DNA from: an uncultured Thermodesulfobacteriota bacterium
Lineage (GTDB): Bacteria > Desulfobacterota > B13-G15
DNA length: 64,000 bases
Assembly (NCBI GenBank): GCA_964611295.1
Contig: CAZSWV010000002.1
Coordinates: 74,988 to 138,987, forward strand
Direction of reading: 5' to 3'
Part shown: in pieces, positions 938 to 12,684 of the stretch
How positions within the stretch are numbered: position 1 is the stretch's first letter
Layout of the letters: each line of letters begins with the position of its first letter
Program-made: the position numbers and the translations under genes
Notes under the pieces: generated by a model
Database searches by the model: none
Told to the model about the DNA's origin: nothing
What the model saw: only the letters and a program-made list of their open reading frames with translations

Positions 938-2374
938 TTATTTTTTTACGTATTCTGCTGCATTTTCACCAGCAATGCGTCCTGAGTTAACAGCAAACCC
1001 CATGGTATTTCCAGGAAGTATAAACACATAAGTATCAGCATTAATTGTATTAGCATCTGTTCCTGCAGCGTACAATCCTTTTATCAATTGATTGTCTTTG
1101 TCAACCACTTCGCACTTATAGTTGATACTTATTCCCCCTAAACTTCCATATCCGCCTAAAGCTAACTTGCCTGCGTAAAATTTCGGTTTCTTAATAGGTC
1201 TTAGGTAACGTGTGTTTTTATTAAAATCTGGGTCAAAACCTTTTTCACAATAATAATTGTACTTTTCCAATTGTTCTTTTAAACCATCCATGTCTATGCC
1301 GGTTTTCTCTGCTAACTCTTCTATAGAATCGCAAATAAATATTACGTCTTTTATTCCTCTTTTAAAGCAGTTTTCGATTAAAATTTCAAAGTTATTCAAT
1401 TTAAAAAATGGAAAAGGTACATGAATAAAATCAAATCCTACATTTTCCATATGCTGTTTTATGTTTTCGTCAAATATCATATAGGCTATTTTATTGGGCT
1501 GATTGAATATAGCATTGGCTACAAAAGTGGAATTGAAAATAATCCCCTCGTTTATGAATCGTTGACCTTTTAAATTTACGAGTAAATGTGGTTGTCGAAA
1601 AGCCTCGGCTAATTGAGGATGTACTTCCCCTGGCATTATGTAGATCAATTGCATAGTAATTTTTGTAGGTTTTGCACCTATTTCCCATGCCATGCGGATG
1701 CCATCTCCGTCTATACCCGCTACCCTGAAGGAAAATAGGTCTTTGCCCCATTCCAAGCCAGTATGTTGTTTGATCATATGGGGATTATTACCGCATCCTC
1801 CTGTAGCGATTATCACTGCTTTAGCCTTTACCATTATTTCGCCGTCTTGATTTTCAGCCACACATCCTGTGATTTTATCCTTTTCTTTTACAAGACGTTT
1901 AACAGGCGTGTTAAAGTAAAATTGCACTCCGAGCTTTTTCGCATAAAGGGTCATCTTTTTAAACATATTCGCAGCACAGCCAGGTCCTCCACCAGGTTTT
2001 ACTATATGCCAAGTTGGCCACCCTCCTGGGAAATATGCCATTGGTTCTAGGAATTCAACTCCCATACTTTCAAGCCATTCTATTGTATCCGCAGACTTTT
2101 CTATGTAGGTTCTGACTAAAAGGGCATCAACACGCCAGTGGGTAAATTCCATAAACACTCTAAAAGCGTCTTCTTTAGAAGGTCCCATTTGACGTAATTT
2201 CTGATGTCTGCTTTCAACGGCAAATAACCCCATTCCCATATTTCCAGTTCCGCCAGTAGTTTTACCTTTTTCAAATACAGACACCTGAACCCCTTTTTCA
2301 GCAGCTGCAATGGCAGCACTTAGCCCTGCTGCACCAGCTCCAATTACTGCTACATCAGTTTCAATCGTACGCAT
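938..2374 (-). CDS. FAD-dependent oxidoreductase of the fumarate reductase / 3-ketosteroid dehydrogenase / TcuA flavoprotein family
   Basis: N-terminal dinucleotide-binding motif DVAVIGAGAAGLSAA, length 478 aa, FAD_binding_2-like layout. Confidence 0.7.
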   Translation of the reverse strand: MRTIETDVAVIGAGAAGLSAAIAAAEKGVQVSVFEKGKTTGGTGNMGMGLFAVESRHQKLRQMGPSKEDAFRVFMEFTHWRVDALLVRTYIEKSADTIEWLESMGVEFLEPMAYFPGGWPTWHIVKPGGGPGCAANMFKKMTLYAKKLGVQFYFNTPVKRLVKEKDKITGCVAENQDGEIMVKAKAVIIATGGCGNNPHMIKQHTGLEWGKDLFSFRVAGIDGDGIRMAWEIGAKPTKITMQLIYIMPGEVHPQLAEAFRQPHLLVNLKGQRFINEGIIFNSTFVANAIFNQPNKIAYMIFDENIKQHMENVGFDFIHVPFPFFKLNNFEILIENCFKRGIKDVIFICDSIEELAEKTGIDMDGLKEQLEKYNYYCEKGFDPDFNKNTRYLRPIKKPKFYAGKLALGGYGSLGGISINYKCEVVDKDNQLIKGLYAAGTDANTINADTYVFILPGNTMGFAVNSGRIAGENAAEYVKK

Positions 2375-2386
2375 CTTTTTCCTCTT

Positions 2387-4453
2387 TTAATATTCAGCCC
2401 AAAATTTGATATTTGGGATACGTAACCTACTATCACATTGCAAACACCGACTAGCTTCCCTTTTAACTTCCTCTTCAGATGTTTCTTCTTTGATATCTAC
2501 CCTAGGAAGGTTTGCAAATTCTGGAATTTTTGCAAAAACAAATTTAGGTACCCTTTCTATATCCCTAAAGGGTATTTTTATCCCTAAATACTTGGCTATT
2601 GCGTAAGCAGCTTTTCTACCTTGACCGCAAGCATCTGATACACTTCTCATGCCATATACGACATCTCCACACGCAAAGACTCCCTCTTTTGATGTAAGGA
2701 AAGTATGAGGATCTATTTCCAATGTGCCATTGTTTTTTATCTTTAACCCAAAACTATCAGGGACTTCTGGCAATTGTCCAATGGCAAAAATAACGGTGTC
2801 ACAAATAACCTTCACTGTTTCTTTCTGAGGATACAACACCTTTATCTCTCCGTTTTCAAAAAGAAACCCCTCTATTTTTTGGAATATCATTTCCCATTTA
2901 TGGTTTTTTGCTATGATTTCCTTTAAATACAGTCGCGTATTAATTTTCACCTCTTTTGATTCTAATGCCTCTATTTCTTCCCTTCCCCATGTAAGCTCAG
3001 TTTTATCTTCTAAGCAGAATAGACTTACCGCTTTTGCTCCCAATCTTTTGGCAGTGAGGGCACAATCTACAGCTGATAGCCCTCCACCTATTACCACCAC
3101 GCTATCGCCTATTGTGAATTTTTCGCCTAAATTGAATTTTCTTAGAAAATCAACAGCCGTGTACAGCCCAGCAAGCCCCCGTGGAACACCTTTAGGCCAT
3201 ACGGGTTTGTTTGCCCCTATGGCTATAAGGATTGCTGAGAAGCCCTGTTCTTTTAAAGTTTCTAATTCCAAAACTTCGTGATTCAATTTAACATCTACCC
3301 CTGAACGGATTATAGCCTCAATTTCAGAATCAAGTATTTCACGAGGTAACCTAAAATAAGGAATGGCCACCCTCATCATTCCTCCTAGCGATACCTCCTT
3401 CTCAAATACGGTTACTTCAAGATTTAACTTAGTTAAAAAGTAAGCTGCAGTAAGTCCTGAAGGTCCTCCTCCTATTATTGCGATCTTTTTCTTTTTATTC
3501 CCTACGCGTGGAATTCTCTTCTTGTTTTCATGGTTTACATTTAACGTTTCGTCTAACATCTTAAGGGCGTAAAATTTAAGCCCTTTTATAGCAACTGATT
3601 CATTAACGTAGCCTCTTCTGCAACTTTTTTCACATGGACGATGACAAATATAAGAAAGTACTCTTGAAAAAGGGCTTTTATCTTTAAGTACTTTTACAGC
3701 TTTATAATAATTACCTTCTTTTATATGCCTTATGAACTCTGGAATATTAATCTCTAAAGGGCACGCTTCTTTACACGGTGTACTTTTTTTCTTTATATTT
3801 TGGATTGGCGTTTCTTTTTCTCTTATTGCAGCAGTAGGACATACTTCTACACAAGTACCACAGAAAATGCACCCTTCCTCTTTCAACGTTTTTCCAGAGT
3901 TGGTATACACATATTTATACCCATCTGTTTCTTTTACATCAAGTACGCCAATCCCTCTTAGTTCCCTGCATGCACGTACACATCTTTTACAAACTACACA
4001 CTTTGTAGGTTCAAATAATATCAAAGGGTTCTCATCAATTACAGGAAGAGGCTTTACAGGATAAGTCAGCAGTTCTTCTTGATTAACTCCAATAAACTGT
4101 TTTAAAGATTGCAATTCGCAGTTTAGATACTTGGGACAACCTATGCATTCATGAGGGTGACCTTTTAATAATTCTGTGAGTTTCTTTTTACGTATTAAAT
4201 AAATTTCTTCATCGTTTGTCAAGATGGACATGTTCTCTTGAACTTGGATACTACAGGAATTCTGTAATCCATCTATCCCTTTTATTTTAACTACACAAAG
4301 TCCACACTCTTCAATAGTAGAAACAATTGGGTGATAACATAAGTGTGGTATATAAATGCCCGCACTTAGCGCTGCCTCAAGTACTGTTGTTCCCTCATAA
4401 GTTTCGATTATATTACCATCAATCAGCAATTTAACTCTTCGCCTGTTGGGCAT
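2387..4453 (-). CDS. Fe-S flavoprotein: NuoG/FdhA-like N-terminus (2Fe-2S, His-ligated cluster, two 4Fe-4S motifs) fused to a GltD-like FAD/NAD(P)H oxidoreductase domain
   Basis: PHLCYHP...CGLCVV, HPHECIGCP, CVVCKRCVRAC...CIFCGTCVEVCP, then IAIIGGGPSGLTAAYFL and a second Rossmann motif. Confidence 0.7.
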   Translation of the reverse strand: MPNRRRVKLLIDGNIIETYEGTTVLEAALSAGIYIPHLCYHPIVSTIEECGLCVVKIKGIDGLQNSCSIQVQENMSILTNDEEIYLIRKKKLTELLKGHPHECIGCPKYLNCELQSLKQFIGVNQEELLTYPVKPLPVIDENPLILFEPTKCVVCKRCVRACRELRGIGVLDVKETDGYKYVYTNSGKTLKEEGCIFCGTCVEVCPTAAIREKETPIQNIKKKSTPCKEACPLEINIPEFIRHIKEGNYYKAVKVLKDKSPFSRVLSYICHRPCEKSCRRGYVNESVAIKGLKFYALKMLDETLNVNHENKKRIPRVGNKKKKIAIIGGGPSGLTAAYFLTKLNLEVTVFEKEVSLGGMMRVAIPYFRLPREILDSEIEAIIRSGVDVKLNHEVLELETLKEQGFSAILIAIGANKPVWPKGVPRGLAGLYTAVDFLRKFNLGEKFTIGDSVVVIGGGLSAVDCALTAKRLGAKAVSLFCLEDKTELTWGREEIEALESKEVKINTRLYLKEIIAKNHKWEMIFQKIEGFLFENGEIKVLYPQKETVKVICDTVIFAIGQLPEVPDSFGLKIKNNGTLEIDPHTFLTSKEGVFACGDVVYGMRSVSDACGQGRKAAYAIAKYLGIKIPFRDIERVPKFVFAKIPEFANLPRVDIKEETSEEEVKREASRCLQCDSRLRIPNIKFWAEY

Positions 4454-5042
4454 ATCTTATCTTGTCTCCTTTGTGTTCAATGCGGAAACAGAAAAAGGGA
4501 TTTGCGTTTGGGTCCTTTACTACTTGCCATATCTTAAATAAAGAGGGAAGGAAACGTCCTAGATTTGTCATTTCCTCTCTGCTGTGTTTCATCCACGCTT
4601 TTATTGTCTCAGGAGCTTCTGGGATTAAAGAAATAGCATATGAAGTACCTCGAACTCCGAAATCGGTTTTTTCCCATTGATGAATTCTATAGGAAATAGG
4701 TGGATTATCTTCTCGGAAATCCGCTTCGGTAAGTGATATACATGCAGCCACAAGGACATGGTCGTACTTAAGGAGCCCTTTAAGATCGTCTGATAAATTT
4801 GAAACGTCTTCCCACCTTATGTAAGGGGTTATCTCGTTACCATCCCAAACTTGAGGAGCTACATGAATAGCCCCAATTACGGAATGGCCTACCGGTTTTT
4901 TGATCCACTCGAAGCCTTTGTGGTCCTTGGGATGCCAAAGGAGGAAACCTTTATCCAAGTTACAGAACCACCAATCAAGCATTTCAGCTGTAATGCCTTT
5001 CAATTTCCAGGAGACTGAAGGCCATTTTCCTTCATCTTTCAT
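4431..5042 (-). CDS. Hypothetical protein of 203 aa inside the redox operon
   Basis: Long ORF packed between neighbouring genes on the same strand. I recognise no family. Confidence 0.5.
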   Translation of the reverse strand: MKDEGKWPSVSWKLKGITAEMLDWWFCNLDKGFLLWHPKDHKGFEWIKKPVGHSVIGAIHVAPQVWDGNEITPYIRWEDVSNLSDDLKGLLKYDHVLVAACISLTEADFREDNPPISYRIHQWEKTDFGVRGTSYAISLIPEAPETIKAWMKHSREEMTNLGRFLPSLFKIWQVVKDPNANPFFCFRIEHKGDKIRYAQQAKS

Positions 5043-5080
5043 GTTTCAACTCCTTTTTACTTTTTGCTTTTAAATCTCGA

Positions 5081-5593
5081 TCACCATAATCCTGTAGGAG
5101 GACCTCCCCCTGGAAGCCCTAATCGTTCGGTCCATGTCATGAGACTTATCTTCCAACGTCCTTTCTCTCGTACGTATTCATTGCGATAGTAACCTTGCAC
5201 CCAAAATAGCGATTGACCTGTTCTCGGGTACATGTACATCAGGTAAAGAAGCCACCTTCCTTTCGCTTTATCACCACTTACCTCAATTATAGGATGCACT
5301 ACAAAGTCCCCTTCTTTGCCTGCATGGGTTTTTGAAAGTTCTTCTTTAAACCATCTTCTAATAGCTTCTTTACCATGAACTGGTTCGTGTAGATACACGT
5401 TTACTGTTGCATCTTCAGCAAAACATTCAGCACATTCATCCCACTCAGTACATATCAATGCATCAACATACTTATGTTGTAACTCACGTATTTCATCTTT
5501 ATCTTCTAAAACTTGCAACCTTTGTTCAAGTTTTTTTATTTTTTCTTCAAGTTCAACAATCCTTTTCTCAAGTTCTTCCAATGTGCGTCCCAT
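5081..5593 (-). CDS. NTF2-like (SnoaL / ketosteroid-isomerase / BaiE-like fold) protein with an N-terminal coiled coil
   Basis: The start was moved to the internal ATG that follows AAAGGAGG. EELEKRIVELEEKIKKLEQR is a coiled coil, followed by an NTF2-like C-terminus. Confidence 0.55.
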   Translation of the reverse strand: MGRTLEELEKRIVELEEKIKKLEQRLQVLEDKDEIRELQHKYVDALICTEWDECAECFAEDATVNVYLHEPVHGKEAIRRWFKEELSKTHAGKEGDFVVHPIIEVSGDKAKGRWLLYLMYMYPRTGQSLFWVQGYYRNEYVREKGRWKISLMTWTERLGLPGGGPPTGLW

Positions 5594-5618
5594 ATTAATT
5601 CCTCCTTTTTTGAAAAAT

Positions 5619-7715
5619 TTATATTTTTCTTGCAGTTTCCCAAGCACTCGCTATAGCATCTACAATTAATGAAGGCTCTTTGCAATCACCTATTACATAA
5701 ATTTCTTTGGCAAAGTTTTTAAATATCTCCACCAATTCCTCATTAGGCATCATCGGAGCTAACGGTATAACAGTATCGGCTTCTAACAAAAGTCTGTCAC
5801 CGTTTTTTTCAATAATAACCCCTTTATTTGTTATTTCTAACACCTTCGCATTATTGTATATACTTACGCCCTTTTTGTTAAACCACTCTAAAAGCAATGC
5901 AAGACGGAAATCTACTACACCTTGTCCTATTTTTTCTCCTTCTTCTACAATTGTAACCTGCCTTCCTCTTTTTACAAGAAACTCTGCAATCTCACATCCT
6001 TGCAAGTTGCCTCCTATTATCACTACCCTTTTGCCGATAGGAATCCATATTTTTGTCAATAAATACAACAAACGTGGCCCAAAAATTTTTAGATATTTCT
6101 TGGCCTGCTTATGTAAAATGTCACTTGTTAGCACTATTTTACTATCAATCCCTTTAATTTGTGGTGTAACGATTTTTCCACCAGCAGCAATTATTAGAAC
6201 ATCAGGACTTAATTTTTTGATCAGTTCAATATCGGCTTTTTTGTTGGTTATAACATTAACTTTTAGTCTTTTAAGTTGAGTTTTATAATATTTAACTATG
6301 CTAAGTACATCTTCTGGAGTAGGACCTTTGACTAAGAAGGCTAGATCAAGAAGACCTCCTATTTTGGGTTCTTTTTCGATAAGGGTAACTTCATGTCCCC
6401 TTAAAGCCGATATCCTCGCTGCTTCCATTCCTGCTGGTCCTGCTCCTATTATTACTACTTTTTTTCTATCTCTTGAGGTCTCTATTGTTGGGTCTTCCTT
6501 TCCCATTGCGGCATTTATCCTACATCGTCTTTCCATACCTTTGCTTTGGTCAAGACAAGTACCACAAGCTGTGCAGGGTGCTATTTCATCTTCTCGACCT
6601 TCGGCAAGTTTACGGGGCAATTCTGGATCTGCCAAGAGCCGCCTGTTCATAGCTATAAAATCTGCTTTGCCCTCCCTTAGGGCTTTTTCGCCCAAATCAG
6701 GGTCCATTTTCCCTACAAGGATGATGGGGATCTTCAAGTATTTCTTTAATTGAGCTGCCAGGAGTATATTCGCCGCTTTACCGTGGAGTTTGGCGTAATA
6801 AAGGCTAGGGAAGTCTTTCACTGGGGGTTCAGGATAAAAGAAATAATCTGGTAAAAAACCGCCTACATGATAGCCCAACCAGTGGCTTCTTACATGAAGG
6901 GCATCTGCTCCCGCTTCTTCTAACAAAAGGGCGATTTTTTTGGCTTCTTCAAAGGTTAAACATTTGTCATCTTGTACCCCAAAAGCGCGTCCTAATTCAA
7001 TGGCGTTCATAATAACAGAAACGGCAAAATCCTTTCCTGCTCTGTTTTTAATTTCTTTAATGGTGTTGATTAAAATCCTAGCTCGATTTTCGGTACTACC
7101 TCCATAATCATCTTCTCGTCTATTCCAAAAAGGTGACAAGAAGTTGTGAAAAAGATGACTACTAGCGGCATTTATCTCGACTCCATCAAATCCTGCTTTC
7201 TTTGCACGAAGAGCCGCCTGTGCAAATTTATCTATAATTTCTTCAATTTCGGATATCGTTAACTTACGAGGCAAATCCCGATGGAAATCCAACGGTGTAT
7301 CCAACTTTATTGGATATGACCCTACAGGAGGACCTTCATAAAGAGGCGGCACATCAGGAAAAAGAGGATTTTGCCAAGGTCCGTCATGCCAAAGCAACAA
7401 GAAAGTAGGACAATCGTGTTTATGGATCACTTCCACGAGTTCCTTTAAACCGTCTATAAACCTGTCATCATCAAGACGATAGCGCTGAGGCCATCTTCCT
7501 CCCAAGGGATAATCCACAATAGGCGATTCCACAACTAATAAGCCAACCCCTCCTTTTGCAAAAGCTTCATAAAACGCTTTAACTTTTGGGTTCATTTTCA
7601 AGTCGTCCTTATGCCAATAATTCATAGCGGCTCCTGTTTTTATGATCCTATTCCTAGTCTTGACCTTCCCTATGTACCCAGGTTCTAAGAGTTTTTTATA
7701 TCGTGACATTAACAC
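5619..7715 (-). CDS. NADH:flavin oxidoreductase of the Old Yellow Enzyme / 2,4-dienoyl-CoA reductase (FadH / BaiCD / enoate reductase) family, with 4Fe-4S and a C-terminal FAD/NAD domain
   Basis: OYE-like N-terminus, the cluster motif CTACGTC...C, then VVIIGAGPAGMEAA and a second Rossmann motif. AAGGAGG precedes the ATG. Confidence 0.8.
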   Translation of the reverse strand: MLMSRYKKLLEPGYIGKVKTRNRIIKTGAAMNYWHKDDLKMNPKVKAFYEAFAKGGVGLLVVESPIVDYPLGGRWPQRYRLDDDRFIDGLKELVEVIHKHDCPTFLLLWHDGPWQNPLFPDVPPLYEGPPVGSYPIKLDTPLDFHRDLPRKLTISEIEEIIDKFAQAALRAKKAGFDGVEINAASSHLFHNFLSPFWNRREDDYGGSTENRARILINTIKEIKNRAGKDFAVSVIMNAIELGRAFGVQDDKCLTFEEAKKIALLLEEAGADALHVRSHWLGYHVGGFLPDYFFYPEPPVKDFPSLYYAKLHGKAANILLAAQLKKYLKIPIILVGKMDPDLGEKALREGKADFIAMNRRLLADPELPRKLAEGREDEIAPCTACGTCLDQSKGMERRCRINAAMGKEDPTIETSRDRKKVVIIGAGPAGMEAARISALRGHEVTLIEKEPKIGGLLDLAFLVKGPTPEDVLSIVKYYKTQLKRLKVNVITNKKADIELIKKLSPDVLIIAAGGKIVTPQIKGIDSKIVLTSDILHKQAKKYLKIFGPRLLYLLTKIWIPIGKRVVIIGGNLQGCEIAEFLVKRGRQVTIVEEGEKIGQGVVDFRLALLLEWFNKKGVSIYNNAKVLEITNKGVIIEKNGDRLLLEADTVIPLAPMMPNEELVEIFKNFAKEIYVIGDCKEPSLIVDAIASAWETARKI

Positions 7716-7867
7716 CTCCTTGACTCACAAGTTCACCTTTAAGGTGTCACAACATTCATGCCAACTGGATTAAAAGTCAAAAAGCCCAAAGGATACAGAA
7801 ACGAGTGAGGACATTTTGGCAACATTTTGCTGAAACGACCAATATCTGACTTCCTGAAAAGCCCTTT

Positions 7868-10800
7868 CTAAATGAGGCCTTCTGGAGAGGGACGCTTAAT
7901 GCCTAACTTCTTCATCTTAAAACGCAAAGTGCTCGGTTTTACCTTAAGGATAGTAGCAGCCCCCTTTGGGCCACTTATCCTCCAACCAGTTAGCTGTAAT
8001 ACTTTTTCTATATGTTCTTTCTCAACATCTGCTAGCGCTTTAAGAGGAGAAGAAACCTCCTCACCCTTGGAGGGCCTCTCTTCTCCAATTGTAAACTTCA
8101 CACTATACCCATTCGAAAGGATAACCGCCCTTTCAATGGTGTGTTTTAATTCTCTTACGTTACCAGGCCAATGGTAATCCAGTAATTTCTTTAACTCTAT
8201 CTGAGGAATGTTTTTTATCTTTTTGCCATATTTTTCACAGAACTTTTTCAAAAAGTGATTAACAAGGGGTATTATATCTTCCTTCCTCTCCCTAAGGGGC
8301 GGTATGTAAATTGGGAACACATTCAAGCGATAATACAAGTCCTGCCTAAAGGTTCCCTTTTTCACTTCTTCCCAAAGGTTTTTATTTGTAGCAGCTATTA
8401 TCCTAAAGTTTGACCTTATGGGCTTTGCTCCTCCTAGTCTCGTAAAAGTACCCTCCTCTAATACCCTCAACAATTTAACTTGAATGCTTAAAGGCAAATC
8501 ACCTATCTCATCGAAGAAAATCGTACCTCCATCAGCTAACTCCAATAAGCCCCTTTGTCTTTCATAAGCACCTGTAAAAGCTCCTTTTTCATGCCCAAAA
8601 AGTTCACTTGCAATTAATTCTTGAGGGATAGCTGCAAGATTGACCGCAATAAAAGGACCATTCCTTCTATCGCTGAGGTTATGAATAGTGCGAGCTACTA
8701 ATTCCTTTCCTACACCAGTTTCTCCTAATATGAGAACAGTGGCATCAGTTAACGCTACTTGTTTAATTTGCTCTATGATCGTTTTTATTGCTTGAGATTC
8801 TCCTATAATTGCAATTTTTTCTTTTTGTTCACTATTGTCAACAGTATATTCATTAAACGCAACACATAACATGTTATTAGCAGAGACTTCTTGTAAATAC
8901 AGGTTTGTAACAGCCAAAGAAACAAAAGCACATAGCATTCTTATGAAAGCTATAGTATCAGTTGAAAATTCTTCTTGGTCAATTTTTCCTTCTAGATATA
9001 GACAACCGCTTCGTTTAGCATCTAGCTTTATAGGCATACAAATGATAGGTTCTTTTAAATCGTCACGTGGAGACAATACTAATTCATATTCGTTTCGAAT
9101 CAAATCTAGGAAATTAATAGAGGATTTATCTTTGTTAAAAGAATAAGGATCTTTATTCCTGCTCACGAGAACTTTAATTTCGCCTTCTTCTTCGCTTAAC
9201 ACTGCCCCACGCATTGCGAGTGATATGTCCATTGCAACGTTTAATGCCTTTTCTAAAAACGAAGGTATTTCTCTTGCTGTTCGCAGTGCTTCGTTTAGTT
9301 TGATTATTCTATTCAATGTGACCTCAACCCTTTGATCGTCTGAAACCCATCCGACAAGGTCCTCTGGAAAAAGTCTGGGATCAATAGACGAAAGGACCTC
9401 CCAGGCTTTCTTTAAATAACCTTTGGCCTTTTTGATTTCACCTTTTTTCATGAAGTACCGGCCTAGTGATATCCAGGTACGGGACAGTTCAATCTGCGCG
9501 CCCGAATACCGCAGGTATCTTTCGCTACTCAAAAAATATTCCAAGGCTTTTTCATCTCCGGCTTCTAAATGTTTCAAACCCCTGTACCTAAGCGCAACGC
9601 CCTTCACAAAAAGATCGTCATACGAAAGCGCTTGTTCTATAAGGGATTCCAAATTGAAATCAGGGATTTCATAACCTGCCCTTTCTAAAATATACAAAGT
9701 TTCAAACAACCAAGGATAAAAAGTCAAAACTCTTCGTTTTTCACTTTTAAACTGGAAAGCCTTCTTTAGAAGAGCTTGGGCTTCTTTGTAGTTCTCGTAT
9801 AAAGTTTCTAAATAAGCCTTATGTATTAACACACCCCAGTAAAGGATATCTCCCAGGTCTTCCTGAGCTATGTTTAAAAGGTTTTCTAAGGATTTTTTAG
9901 CATCTTCTATTCTGTTAAGCGAAAAATAAGATATTACTTCTGCTTGGTGACAATAATTTACCACTTGACTATAGTTGAGCCTTTTGGCTTTTTCCTTAAC
10001 TGCTTCAATCATTCCTAATCCTCGCGAGACTCTCCCACACAATACAAGGCTAAAACCGATTAATTGAGTAGCCATCAATGCGTTCTCGTCTTCTTCGAAT
10101 TCCTCTATTTCATTGAGCAACTTTTCATAACACGCAATAGCTTCCTTAAACTTTCCTTTCCAGACGTAATATTCGCTCAAACAATGAGAGGAAAGCTTGA
10201 TTTCTTCGTTTTCTTCTAATAAATTAGCTAAATTCAAAAAACGCTCTATGTATTCTGAGGCTTCTGTGTACCATCCTATATCTTGAAAGGCTCTTCCTAA
10301 CTTAAGGCAAATTAATGCAAGTTTACTTTGGAAATTGTACATTTCTGCTAGTTCTTTTGCCTTTTGCAGTAAATGAATCTGATCTTGAGGTTGCATGCGA
10401 TGCATCAAAACATAAGCTTTCGCTATAGCACTGTCGACAAATAAAGAAGCTTCTTCTGCAGATTTTGGGTTATGTTTGGCAAAATGTTCTAAAATATAAT
10501 CGTAATAAGTAATTGATGAAAGTTTATCGTGGCTCTTGAGTAATAGATCAGCTGCCTCTTTTATTATTTTTAAACCTTCAATTGTTGGCAGTACTTTTTT
10601 AAATAGATCGGCCAAAGCCAGGGTTTTTCTTTCATAAGGTATCATCGCTTCTTTGTAATGATTTATTAACTTTTCTATAATATCAGCAACGTCTTCCAGG
10701 GGTATGGAATCTCTAAGTTCATTTAAACATGAAGGTTGCTTCAGAGAAAAAAGACCCCGTCCCGCTTCTTTGTGTTCTACCACCAACCCCCTTCGCCTTA

Positions 10801-10981
10801 GTTTTTCCATAAGGTTCAATACTGAAGTAGCCGGAGCCCCTGTTAACAGGCTAAGGCTATCAACAGACACTGGATGCTCAAAATAAAGAAAAGCAGTAAA
10901 TACTTTCTTTTCAGTTGAATCAAAAAGACCCCATAAACGTTTGAATTTTTCAAACTTCTCCATCGGGCAACATTTTGCCAA
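7868..10981 (-). CDS. Sigma-54-dependent transcriptional activator (bEBP) with a wHTH + TPR-like + GAF-like N-terminal region of about 700 aa
   Basis: AAA+ Walker A GETGVGKE, the sigma-54 contact motif GAFTGA, and a C-terminal Fis-type HTH. The N-terminal region is helical-repeat rich. Confidence 0.85.
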   Translation of the reverse strand: MAKCCPMEKFEKFKRLWGLFDSTEKKVFTAFLYFEHPVSVDSLSLLTGAPATSVLNLMEKLRRRGLVVEHKEAGRGLFSLKQPSCLNELRDSIPLEDVADIIEKLINHYKEAMIPYERKTLALADLFKKVLPTIEGLKIIKEAADLLLKSHDKLSSITYYDYILEHFAKHNPKSAEEASLFVDSAIAKAYVLMHRMQPQDQIHLLQKAKELAEMYNFQSKLALICLKLGRAFQDIGWYTEASEYIERFLNLANLLEENEEIKLSSHCLSEYYVWKGKFKEAIACYEKLLNEIEEFEEDENALMATQLIGFSLVLCGRVSRGLGMIEAVKEKAKRLNYSQVVNYCHQAEVISYFSLNRIEDAKKSLENLLNIAQEDLGDILYWGVLIHKAYLETLYENYKEAQALLKKAFQFKSEKRRVLTFYPWLFETLYILERAGYEIPDFNLESLIEQALSYDDLFVKGVALRYRGLKHLEAGDEKALEYFLSSERYLRYSGAQIELSRTWISLGRYFMKKGEIKKAKGYLKKAWEVLSSIDPRLFPEDLVGWVSDDQRVEVTLNRIIKLNEALRTAREIPSFLEKALNVAMDISLAMRGAVLSEEEGEIKVLVSRNKDPYSFNKDKSSINFLDLIRNEYELVLSPRDDLKEPIICMPIKLDAKRSGCLYLEGKIDQEEFSTDTIAFIRMLCAFVSLAVTNLYLQEVSANNMLCVAFNEYTVDNSEQKEKIAIIGESQAIKTIIEQIKQVALTDATVLILGETGVGKELVARTIHNLSDRRNGPFIAVNLAAIPQELIASELFGHEKGAFTGAYERQRGLLELADGGTIFFDEIGDLPLSIQVKLLRVLEEGTFTRLGGAKPIRSNFRIIAATNKNLWEEVKKGTFRQDLYYRLNVFPIYIPPLRERKEDIIPLVNHFLKKFCEKYGKKIKNIPQIELKKLLDYHWPGNVRELKHTIERAVILSNGYSVKFTIGEERPSKGEEVSSPLKALADVEKEHIEKVLQLTGWRISGPKGAATILKVKPSTLRFKMKKLGIKRPSPEGLI

Positions 10982-11022
10982 AAAGAGAAAATTTCGTCAA
11001 TATTTAAAGCAGAACCTTAATT

Positions 11023-12684
11023 TCAAAGGCTAAGCTTAGTGAGTCCTTTCTCCTTGTAGGCGAGATAAGTAAGATATCCACCGCTTAAGTTTTCGGCTTG
11101 GTAACCTTTTTGCATGAGAATACGGCACGCTATGTAACTGCGCAGGCCTTGGGAACAATACACTTTTATCAGTCGGTTTTGTGGCAATTTGTCGAGATTA
11201 AACCGTAAACTTTCTAAAGGAATGTTAACCGCATAAGGGACATGTCCTTTTTTAAATTCTTCTTCACTCCTTACGTCTAACAAAAAATCCCCTGAGTCCA
11301 CGCGATCCCAGTGAGTGACATTTACAATATTTTTTATGATATTCTCTGCAATAAAACCAACCATGTTTATAGGATCTTTAGCACTCCCATAAGGTGGACT
11401 ATAAGCCAAATGTAGATCTTTAAGATCAATTATATTAAGGCCGCCATAAATAGCAGTGGCTATTACATCAATCCTTTTATCCACTCCTATTTGTCCTATC
11501 ATTTGAGCTCCTAGAATTCTTTTGGATTTTTTAGAAAACAGTATTTTCATATGAATTGGAGAAGCTCCTGGGTAATAAGTTGCATGGTCATAAGGATGAA
11601 GGTAAATTTTTTCGTAATCCTCATTGATCAACGGTAAACTACGCTCATTTATACCAGTTGACGCTACTGTGATATTAAAAACTTTCAATATTGATGTTGC
11701 AAGTGTCCCTTTGTAACGCTCTTGTCTTCCACATATGTTGTTTGCAACTACCCTTCCTTGTTTATTGGCAGGACCAGCAAGAGGTATGATCATTTTGCGT
11801 TTTGAAATGAGTTCTTCTGTTTCAATGGCATCACCAACCGCATAAATATCCGGATCGTTAGTCTGAAGAAACTCATTGACTTTTATCCCCCCATTTTCTC
11901 CAATATCTAGACCGGCATCAATCGCAAGTTTGACTTCAGGTTTTATACCAGTGGCCAGAATTACGAAATCGCATTCCTTTTCTTCCCCATCTTCCCAACG
12001 TACAGAGATTTTTTCCCCTTTTTTCTCAAAGGTTAAGACAGGTTGTCCTAGTTTCAGGCTTATTCCCTCTTGTTTAAGGTTTTCTTCCACGTAAAAGGAC
12101 ATTTCTTGATCTAGGTAGGGAAGTACTTGATTAAGGACGTCAGTCAGAGTGACTTCAAGCCCTCTTTTGCGAAAGTTTTCAGCAACTTCTAAGCCTATCG
12201 CTCCAGCCCCTAGTATAATGGTTTGTTTTGCCTTCCGGTAAGCGATGAACCTGTTTATAGCTTCGGCGTCGGGTATAGTTCGTAAAGTAAAAACCCCTTC
12301 TAAGTCTATACCTTTTATAGGTGGGCGGAAAGGTTCAGCTCCTGGTGAAAGTACTAATTTGTCATAACTTTCTCGGTATGTTCTGCCGTTTATCCTATCA
12401 AAAACCTCCACTTGTTTTTGGCTTCTGTCGATCTTTATAACTTCGTGTCCTATTCTCACGTCTACTTTAAAACGTTTCTTAAAGATTTCAGGTGTCATTA
12501 TAATGAGATGCTCCTTTTTGCCGATTACGCCACCCAAATAATAAGGAAGACCACAGTTAGCATAAGATATATATTCACCTCTTTCAAATAAAATGATCTC
12601 CGCTTCTTCGTTAAGACGCCTAAGCCTCGCAGCTACAGAAGCTCCTCCTGCCACACCTCCTACAATTAAAACCTTTAAGCCCAT
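11023..12684 (-). CDS. CoA-disulfide reductase / NADH-dependent persulfide reductase with a C-terminal rhodanese domain
   Basis: Active-site motif YANCGLPYY, two Rossmann motifs, and a C-terminal rhodanese loop VYCSQGLRS. Confidence 0.75.
   Translation of the reverse strand: MGLKVLIVGGVAGGASVAARLRRLNEEAEIILFERGEYISYANCGLPYYLGGVIGKKEHLIIMTPEIFKKRFKVDVRIGHEVIKIDRSQKQVEVFDRINGRTYRESYDKLVLSPGAEPFRPPIKGIDLEGVFTLRTIPDAEAINRFIAYRKAKQTIILGAGAIGLEVAENFRKRGLEVTLTDVLNQVLPYLDQEMSFYVEENLKQEGISLKLGQPVLTFEKKGEKISVRWEDGEEKECDFVILATGIKPEVKLAIDAGLDIGENGGIKVNEFLQTNDPDIYAVGDAIETEELISKRKMIIPLAGPANKQGRVVANNICGRQERYKGTLATSILKVFNITVASTGINERSLPLINEDYEKIYLHPYDHATYYPGASPIHMKILFSKKSKRILGAQMIGQIGVDKRIDVIATAIYGGLNIIDLKDLHLAYSPPYGSAKDPINMVGFIAENIIKNIVNVTHWDRVDSGDFLLDVRSEEEFKKGHVPYAVNIPLESLRFNLDKLPQNRLIKVYCSQGLRSYIACRILMQKGYQAENLSGGYLTYLAYKEKGLTKLSL

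Follow-up and report, generated by a model that had tools for sequence, protein, structure and literature searches.

A sigma-54 activator with a winged-helix, TPR and GAF sensor region and its probable target operon in an uncultured Thermodesulfobacteriota bacterium

In a 64-kb stretch of contig CAZSWV010000002.1 (positions 74,988 to 138,987; hereafter the window, meaning all 64,000 nucleotides analysed) from an uncultured Thermodesulfobacteriota bacterium, a minus-strand gene at 7868..10963 encodes a transcriptional regulator in which a winged-helix domain (WHD), a TPR-like solenoid and a GAF domain precede a sigma-54 AAA+ domain and a Fis-type helix-turn-helix (HTH). We consider it probable that this protein is a sigma-54 activator that uses the WHD-TPR-GAF region as its sensor and switches on the adjoining operon through a palindromic DNA site. 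Anaerobic organisms of the Deltaproteobacteria type rely mainly on sigma-54 activators as their one-component switches, with 27-88 of them per genome (PMC6299228). To our knowledge, the signal has been identified for almost none of them.

Architecture of the regulator and its family

The minus-strand open reading frame at 7868..10981 is intact, without interruption in the open reading frame listing and its translation. The listing opens it at a TTG (10981), giving the 1037 aa of an earlier, sequence-only reading of the window. The ATG at 10963 is the start in the identical database protein P0001 and in all ten full-length homologues, and is therefore likely to be the true start; the frame of that reading stands, while its start moves inward, to give 1031 aa. 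The window protein was scanned with Pfam and NCBIfam profiles at their own family or equivalog cutoffs, and AlphaFold2 was given an alignment of 11 family members (mean pLDDT 79 at full length; 88.7 for residues 1-545, with pTM 0.79). The resulting features are as follows.

7868..10963, minus strand: regulator gene, WHD-TPR-GAF-AAA+-HTH_8, 1031 aa (open reading frame, Pfam, identity with P0001)
10709..10963, minus strand: winged-helix domain, residues 1-85 (AlphaFold2 topology, weak winged-HTH matches, hhalign)
9383..10699, minus strand: TPR-like alpha-solenoid of about 22 helices, candidate sensor, residues 89-527
8840..9331, minus strand: divergent GAF domain with long linker helix (668-708) into AAA+, residues 545-708 (AlphaFold2, homologues, NCBIfam)
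8096..8809, minus strand: sigma-54 interaction AAA+ domain and lid, residues 719-956 (Pfam, motifs, Foldseek)
7904..8035, minus strand: Fis-type HTH_8 DNA-binding domain, residues 977-1020 (Pfam; about 50% mean identity in 81 members)

The C-terminal part carries the sigma-54 engine. Pfam places Sigma54_activat (PF00158) at residues 719-885 (E 3.6e-72), AAA_lid_14 at 891-956, and the Fis-type HTH_8 at 977-1020, with 30.5 bits against a cutoff of 22. The motifs GETGVGKE (747-754) and GAFTGA (794-799) and the Walker B residues DE (818-819) are invariant in the 11/11 family sequences aligned, so that the two motifs and the Fis-type HTH named in the sequence-only reading are in place. Foldseek, queried with the full model, returned only AAA+ structures of bacterial enhancer-binding proteins (bEBPs), with NtrC1 at 57-58% identity (E ~4e-17). 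Because every sequence-level defining feature is present, i.e., an AAA+ domain with Walker A and B, the GAFTGA loop and the C-terminal HTH, we class the regulator as a genuine bEBP with a complete and conserved core of AAA+ with GAFTGA, lid and Fis-type HTH.

Upstream of the engine, the model has an alpha/beta GAF-type topology at 545-660, followed by a 40-residue helix (668-708) that enters the AAA+ domain. The GAF assignment is supported because the aligned segment in seven homologues (P0009, P0033, P0071, P0087, P0104, P0126 and P0142) lies above the Pfam thresholds of GAF, GAF_2 or GAF_3. The NCBIfam alignments of nifA, NorR and FlhA begin at ~637-642, inside the GAF domain, and extend through AAA+, with scores of 347, 334 and 335 against equivalog cutoffs of 529, 476 and 830, respectively. 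Since these scores fall far under the cutoffs, the GAF-AAA+ junction is of the NifA/NorR/FhlA type and the protein is none of them.

The solenoid at 89-527 is predicted as ~22 antiparallel helices in hairpins. TPR_8, TPR_12 and TPR_2 exceed their Pfam cutoffs at 218-301, and TPR_MalT gives a weak, sub-threshold match at 445-523. A profile of residues 1-545 matched LGN/Pins and kinesin-light-chain TPRs in the PDB (3e-10, residues ~190-300). Structural matches include Rap of phage phi105 with its peptide (23.6), MalT domain III (23.4, 328 residues aligned), AimR (19.3 and 17.8), NprR (18.8), RapH (15.7) and PlcR (14.6).

The first residues are predicted to fold as a winged HTH of the ArsR/TrmB type, with the topology H-H-b-H-H-b-b and the winged-helix unit at 3-74 (helices 3-13, 16-27, 34-41 and 45-57; hairpin 61-63/71-74). 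A WHD profile built from 36 aligned sequences, covering the first ~90 residues, gave weak matches in the PDB to YgaV (0.019), KdgR (0.036) and ArsR (0.18). The family consensus is roughly L..AALF...FS.DW...L.G.K.S..L..L.....G.L.....G.Y.F; its conserved positions are mostly hydrophobic core, and the putative recognition helix is inconsistently basic. The same profile aligns in hhalign with residues 581-657 of P0016 (probability 87%, E 3.9e-6) and 566-643 of P0020 (90%, E 1.8e-6). In P0016, an AAA_16 domain at 302-476 comes first, then the WHD-matching stretch, then a TPR array from 753. In STAND proteins, the winged-helix domain sits between the NTPase and the TPR sensor. We read the winged helix of the window protein as a STAND WHD because hhalign places it after AAA_16 and before the TPR in P0016. 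It should be noted that this homology was seen with the deeper, domain-only profile and in relatives other than P0015; the whole N-terminal profile aligned with P0015 in the TPR part alone (41% probability). Pfam gave no STAND, NB-ARC or AAA_16 NTPase match N-terminal of residue 719, where the model has winged HTH and helical repeats ahead of the GAF domain, and the OmpR-type winged HTH (Trans_reg_C) and BTAD were absent from the Pfam scan at E<=1. By its profile matches, the N-terminus is a STAND-type WHD and TPR sensor without the STAND NTPase. AlphaFold2 and the profile searches find the winged-helix, TPR-like and GAF-like regions where the sequence-only reading had put them.

That reading had presented the protein as a singular graft. 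This does not hold: the regulator is one member of a large family that keeps its architecture constant and has many paralogues. A search of 1.84 billion representatives with the N-terminal profile gave 784 clusters (50% identity) at E<=1e-10, of which 153 reach E<=1e-30. Complete cluster members are nearly all 1020-1085 aa long (typically ~1040), with the match at residues ~10-545; among nine sampled members, all nine have Sigma54_activat and lid, and six have GAF above the Pfam cutoff. A locus scan of one genome per GTDB species with two peptide seeds from the alignment recovered 29 loci, all in metagenome-assembled genomes, from Syntrophaceae/Syntrophus, Syntrophorhabdaceae, Desulfatiglandales, Desulfobacteraceae, other Thermodesulfobacteriota and SAR324. 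A scan of the genome collection seeded by a single protein found 0, because its peptide seeds were too specific. Several genomes have two family copies, as does Geobacter sp. FeAm09 (CP042466), with P0010 and P0011. The JGI contig that carries P0009 shows a local duplication of the regulator: two paralogues (1060 and 1051 aa) have a single ferredoxin gene between them, and genes for FAD-linked oxidase/CCG, ETF and FAD_binding_2 proteins lie around the pair. P0142 (1116 aa) carries an IS1595-type transposase zinc ribbon N-terminal to the WHD-TPR-GAF-AAA+ body, probably a gene-call fusion or an insertion adjoining the gene.

Mean pairwise identity in 81 members is 0.21 for the WHD, 0.20-0.23 for the TPR and 0.26 for the GAF domain, against 0.57 for AAA+ and 0.50 for the HTH, which is the pattern expected of a variable sensor on a constant engine. 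Database names are generic ("sigma 54-interacting transcriptional regulator", "GAF, ATPase, and Fis domain / TPR repeat"), and our literature search for the WHD-TPR-GAF-sigma54 architecture found no paper describing it. A 2025 survey gives REC, PAS, GAF, PRD and V4R as bEBP sensor modules (PMC12316311). Judged from these comparisons, the proteins form a large, uncharacterised family of anaerobic Thermodesulfobacteriota, and their sensor architecture is new relative to the described bEBP types.

The same conservation bears on the idea that the gene is a decayed remnant, i.e., a kinase-STAND-TPR-GAF-sigma54 gene truncated at its 5' end that has lost its function. Larger relatives do have Pkinase and AAA_16 before the same WHD-TPR-GAF-AAA+ order. 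Conversely, the short form accounts for no fewer than 153 clusters (50% identity), its length is constant and its N-terminus starts intact at the WHD; its catalytic motifs are all invariant, its own promoter and operator are conserved, and synteny with the regulated operons is kept (see below). Because of these data, the remnant explanation is effectively refuted, and we regard it as extremely improbable.

Candidate regulatory DNA and the adjoining operon

Sites and genes around the regulator are as follows.

7811..7831, minus strand: candidate enhancer (upstream activating sequence) AGCAAAATGTTGCC (7818-7831), with a second CAAAATGT repeat 11 bp on; conserved in orthologues
7749..7763, minus strand: candidate sigma-54 promoter TGGCATGAATGTTGT (-24 GG; -12 TTGT for TTGC); conserved in orthologues
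938..7709, minus strand: presumed target operon of five genes (profile scans; synteny in L002, L003 and L012)
5619-7709, minus strand: NCR/BaiCD-like OYE (OYE/Pyr_redox_2) Fe-S flavoenzyme
5081-5593, minus strand: SnoaL_4 protein
4431-5042, minus strand: DAPG-hydrolase-like protein
2387-4453, minus strand: NuoG-N/GltD-like electron-input protein
938-2374, minus strand: FAD_binding_2 reductase
10972..11000, minus strand: sigma-70-like promoter TTGACG-17-CAAAAT; TTGACG conserved in L002, L003 and L012
10966..10979, minus strand: palindrome GGCAAAATGTTGCC, candidate auto-operator, overlapping the -10 hexamer and ending 3 bp before the ATG

The order regulator-OYE-SnoaL_4-electron module-FAD_binding_2 is kept in L002, L003 and L012, the regulators of which are 86%, 59% and ~52% identical to that of the window, and the OYE gene still adjoins the regulator at 46% (P0008) and 45% (L007) identity. 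The gap of 158 bp from the regulator stop to the OYE start holds TGGCATGAATGTTGT, which has the counterparts TGGCACGAATGTTGT (L002), TGGCACGATCCTTGT (L003) and TGGCACGATTGTTGA (L012) and is thus present in all four orthologous loci. This candidate -24/-12 promoter emerged after the -12 C was relaxed and orthologues were compared; the strict pattern TGGCAC-N5-TTGCW with <=1 mismatch gave 0 matches in the window, and the relaxed pattern, applied to the window alone, has at least one match in 28/100 shuffles. Eighteen further paralogue loci have a similar element ~180-260 bp upstream of the regulator, on the other strand and directed towards a divergent operon. The background of 96 matches in 768 kb corresponds to ~0.06 per locus for that strand and interval, so that ~1.7 loci are expected versus the 18 observed. 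The -24/-12-like elements beside family regulators (L002-L033) often have TTGT or TTGA at -12, which suggests either that the need for C at -12 is relaxed in this clade or that the fork-junction element is deliberately weak.

The candidate enhancer AGCAAAATGTTGCC sits ~55 bp upstream of the -24 element and has equivalent sites in L002, L003, L012 and L007. The 13-mer GCAAAATGTTGCC occurs in exactly two copies in the window, both at regulatory positions, the second being at 10966-10978, 3 bp before the regulator ATG. The latter palindrome, GGCAAAATGTTGCC, is identical in L002 and reads TGGCTAAATATTGCC in L003 and TTGTTAAATATTGCC in L012. Because this copy overlaps the regulator's own sigma-70-type -10 hexamer, the arrangement suggests autorepression of the regulator gene. 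The ATG follows the -10 by 8 nt and no Shine-Dalgarno sequence was found (10961-11000), for which reason a near-leaderless mRNA is predicted; the same arrangement is seen in L002, L003 and L012. A match at the regulator start, TGGCAAAATGTTGCC, was considered as a sigma-54 promoter and rejected, its GG-to-GC spacing being one base short in all orthologues.

The motif GCAA-N4-TTGC is confined to OYE-linked loci: it is found at equivalent places in L002, L012 and L007 and as a variant in L003, and, leaving aside one unrelated match in L014, the intergenic DNA of the remaining paralogue loci lacks it. In L007, the palindrome lies in a divergent intergenic region without a convincing -24/-12 element. 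Three other groups of paralogues have palindromes of their own between promoter and regulator: (i) TACGA-N4-TCGTA in the corrinoid/methyltransferase group (L017, L018, L019, L022 and L025); (ii) TACAA-N4-TTGTA in the ABC-transporter group (L013, L021 and L033); (iii) GGCCA-N4-TGGCC in the CoA-ligase/TRAP group (L020 and L024). These are mostly tandem, and all are 5-N4-5 like GGCAA-N4-TTGCC. Such group-specific 5-N4-5 palindromes would be expected if the enhancers were read by a dimeric Fis-type HTH that is conserved in the family and makes different base contacts in each group, and they would permit a recognition code to be derived for the HTH_8 of this family.

The palindromes, or some other operator, could instead be read by the N-terminus, if the winged helix were a second functional DNA-binding domain and the protein an RNPP-like HTH-TPR repressor fused to a bEBP. 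We consider this rather unlikely. The classic winged-HTH fold, with its weak matches to TrmB, IclR, ArsR/YgaV and KdgR, is in keeping with it, and in the window's subfamily the putative recognition helix closes with a basic KLRRRG/KLKRKG; in the wider family, however, conservation falls mostly on the hydrophobic core, and acidic or neutral residues are frequent at the recognition-helix position. The segment is also homologous to the STAND WHD, an interdomain packing element, whereas the C-terminal HTH_8, the usual enhancer reader, is conserved at 50% mean identity, and 5-N4-5 palindromes suit a dimeric Fis-type HTH.

As to the presumed target genes, the nearest solved relative of the OYE flavoenzyme is 2-naphthoyl-CoA reductase (6qkg, 8.7e-79), and among the NCBIfam models it scores best with those for bilirubin reductase and BaiCD, under the cutoff in each case. 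BaiE is among the PDB matches of the SnoaL_4 protein; the best of these, 8abv, is a sphingomonad diarylpropane lyase and has little bearing on the operon. The FAD_binding_2 reductase is closest to the vinyl phenol reductase VprA (328 bits versus a cutoff of 600). The operon pairs two different flavoenzymes of the C=C-reductase (ene-reductase) type with the SnoaL_4, DAPG-hydrolase-like and electron-input proteins.

The neighbours of the paralogues differ. A corrinoid protein, a URO-D-like methyltransferase and formate-THF ligase (FTHFS) accompany the regulator in five loci, a set that appears to resemble an O-demethylase system, and a LIV-type ABC transporter does so in four. An AMP-forming CoA ligase is found with a TRAP transporter in L020 and L024 and alone in L016 and L026. 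Other neighbours are SDR, enoyl-CoA hydratase, BcrAD/BadFG-type ATPase, ETF, MFS transporters and methyl-accepting chemotaxis proteins; those of the Geobacter paralogues are flavocytochrome-type FAD_binding_2 reductases with cytochrome c3. From these neighbourhoods and the host taxa, we infer that the paralogues are substrate-specific controllers of pathways that catabolise or reduce aromatic and unsaturated acids anaerobically.

On the other side of the regulator, the gene at 11023-12684 (minus strand) ends 60 bp upstream; it is CoA-disulfide-reductase-like, with a C-terminal rhodanese domain (508 bits versus an equivalog cutoff of 579), and has genes for ATP synthase I, a and c beyond it. 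Its linkage to the regulator was found in L001 and L002 only. In the place of this gene, L003 (2240-2400) and L012 (~5900-5950) have tRNA-like sequences directly upstream of the regulator, which may mark a rearrangement or integration hotspot.

Proposed mechanism and its weighing

Members of the family probably switch on neighbouring catabolic operons. In the window, the conserved DNA and the synteny suggest that the C-terminal HTH would bind the 14-bp palindrome GGCAA-N4-TTGCC upstream of the -24/-12 promoter and activate the downstream operon, with its two ene-reductase-type flavoenzymes, SnoaL_4 protein and NAD(P)H/ferredoxin-type electron input, while the second, likewise conserved palindrome over the sigma-70-type -10 would let the protein repress its own gene. 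The sensing steps are modelled on known proteins. As in MalT and the RNPP sensors, the TPR and/or GAF domain may bind the substrate or an early intermediate of the pathway, probably an unsaturated, aromatic-derived acid or its CoA ester. As in NtrC1, DctD and NorR, the unliganded sensor region would keep AAA+ unable to assemble or to contact sigma-54, and ligand binding could lift this block on the hexamerisation or ATPase activity of AAA+, with the long linker helix between GAF and AAA+ passing on the change. The paralogues would do the same at other catabolic or uptake operons, as an anaerobe counterpart of the XylR/DmpR-type bEBPs.

We put forward a further version of the sensing steps more tentatively, as doubtful though possible. 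The protein would be an "NTPase-swapped" STAND protein, in which WHD and TPR are kept, the NOD is lost, the sigma-54 AAA+ ring takes the role of the ligand-gated oligomerising ATPase, and the GAF domain couples the two; a TPR ligand would gate hexamerisation, and the family would have diversified into many substrate-specific paralogues for the anaerobic degradation of aromatic and unsaturated acids in syntrophic and sulfate-reducing Thermodesulfobacteriota. If true, this would be a mode of control undescribed for any bEBP. The family could also be used to find out whether an AAA+ ring can be governed by a STAND-type sensor to which it is unrelated, and the question is directly testable because predicted group-specific 5-N4-5 operators and -24/-12 promoters are available.

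Alternatively, the GAF domain may be the sole ligand sensor, as in NorR, NifA and FhlA, with WHD-TPR serving for oligomerisation or as a docking platform for some other protein, be it an anti-activator, a partner enzyme or a further subunit. This, too, we hold possible and do not favour. The GAF domain lies directly beside AAA+ in a NifA/NorR-type junction, and reductive dehalogenase clusters of marine Deltaproteobacteria are reported to pair a sigma-54 activator gene with a separate TPR-protein gene (PMC6299228), which may be a split version of the TPR-bEBP partnership fused here. Yet no conserved partner gene accompanies the family across the examined loci, where the sequence-only reading had suggested control by a small molecule together with protein partners, and the TPR varies among paralogue groups as much as the GAF domain does, as expected if it adds signal specificity. 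Besides, MalT domain III, an equally good structural match of the solenoid, binds maltotriose.

Several observations weigh against activation of the operon through a WHD-TPR-GAF sensor, the reading that we prefer. As regards the DNA, no RpoN box was found within the window; the -24 is canonical, and the -12 has T or A where C is the consensus (TTGT/TTGA) in the window and orthologues; and one full palindrome only lies upstream of the promoter, versus two or three sites for many bEBPs. The CoA-disulfide reductase gene upstream may be a further target of the regulator, or its target in place of the operon, a linkage limited to the closest relative. As regards the sensor, the GAF/DUF3369 match (550-692) is weak and below the Pfam cutoff in the window protein, as is the TrmB winged-HTH match at 14-66 (E 0.0059); for three of five STAND-bearing relatives, hhalign gave no significant match to the WHD (2/5 significant); and the comparison of within- versus between-group identity per domain did not separate TPR and GAF as the setter of specificity.

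The family adjoins operons typical of the anaerobic breakdown of aromatic, methoxylated and unsaturated compounds. Since it is numerous, of fixed architecture and beside catabolic operons, its ligands would give substrate assignments for many orphan catabolic operons of uncultured syntrophs. New inducible sensor-promoter pairs might also be drawn from it.

Comparison with known systems

The protein shares with NifA, NorR and FhlA a GAF domain, a helix that links it to the sigma-54 AAA+ domain, and a Fis-type HTH after the latter; the 540-aa WHD-TPR module before the GAF domain is found in none of them. The order WHD-TPR-GAF-AAA+ is that of the bEBPs with kinase or AAA_16, TPR, GAF and sigma-54 parts from Planctomycetes, the FCB group and metagenomes (P0015, P0016 and P0020). 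The AAA_16-bearing P0015 is 29% identical over 802 columns in BLAST, from window residue 192 to the end (TPR-GAF-AAA+-HTH). These proteins, however, have 1400-1800 aa and open with a Ser/Thr kinase and/or a STAND NTPase, whereas the family of the window starts at the WHD and has ~1040 aa.

With MalT, the protein has in common a sensor half of winged helix and TPR, domain III being among the best structural matches of the solenoid; it differs in having neither the NOD NTPase nor the LuxR-type effector, and its oligomerising ATPase is the sigma-54 AAA+ domain at the opposite end. Nothing in it is like the SARP part of AfsR. Of the MalT/AfsR-style scaffold proposed in the sequence-only reading, the STAND-like sensor and winged helix are borne out, and the defining NTPase and the OmpR-type winged HTH and BTAD of AfsR are not. 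The RNPP/AimR proteins (Rap, NprR, PlcR and AimR) resemble it in the solenoid fold only, at 11% sequence identity; their HTH is XRE-type whereas that of the window protein is winged, they have no GAF or AAA+, and they sense exported peptides in Firmicutes and their phages. No conserved small open reading frame accompanies the family of the window protein.

The nearest parallel in likely role is with XylR and DmpR, i.e., a substrate-responsive sigma-54 activator beside the catabolic operon that it controls; DmpR is also among the Foldseek matches, via its AAA+ domain. In XylR and DmpR the sensor is V4R/XylR_N, of ~200 aa, whereas here it would be WHD-TPR-GAF, in hosts that are strict anaerobes.

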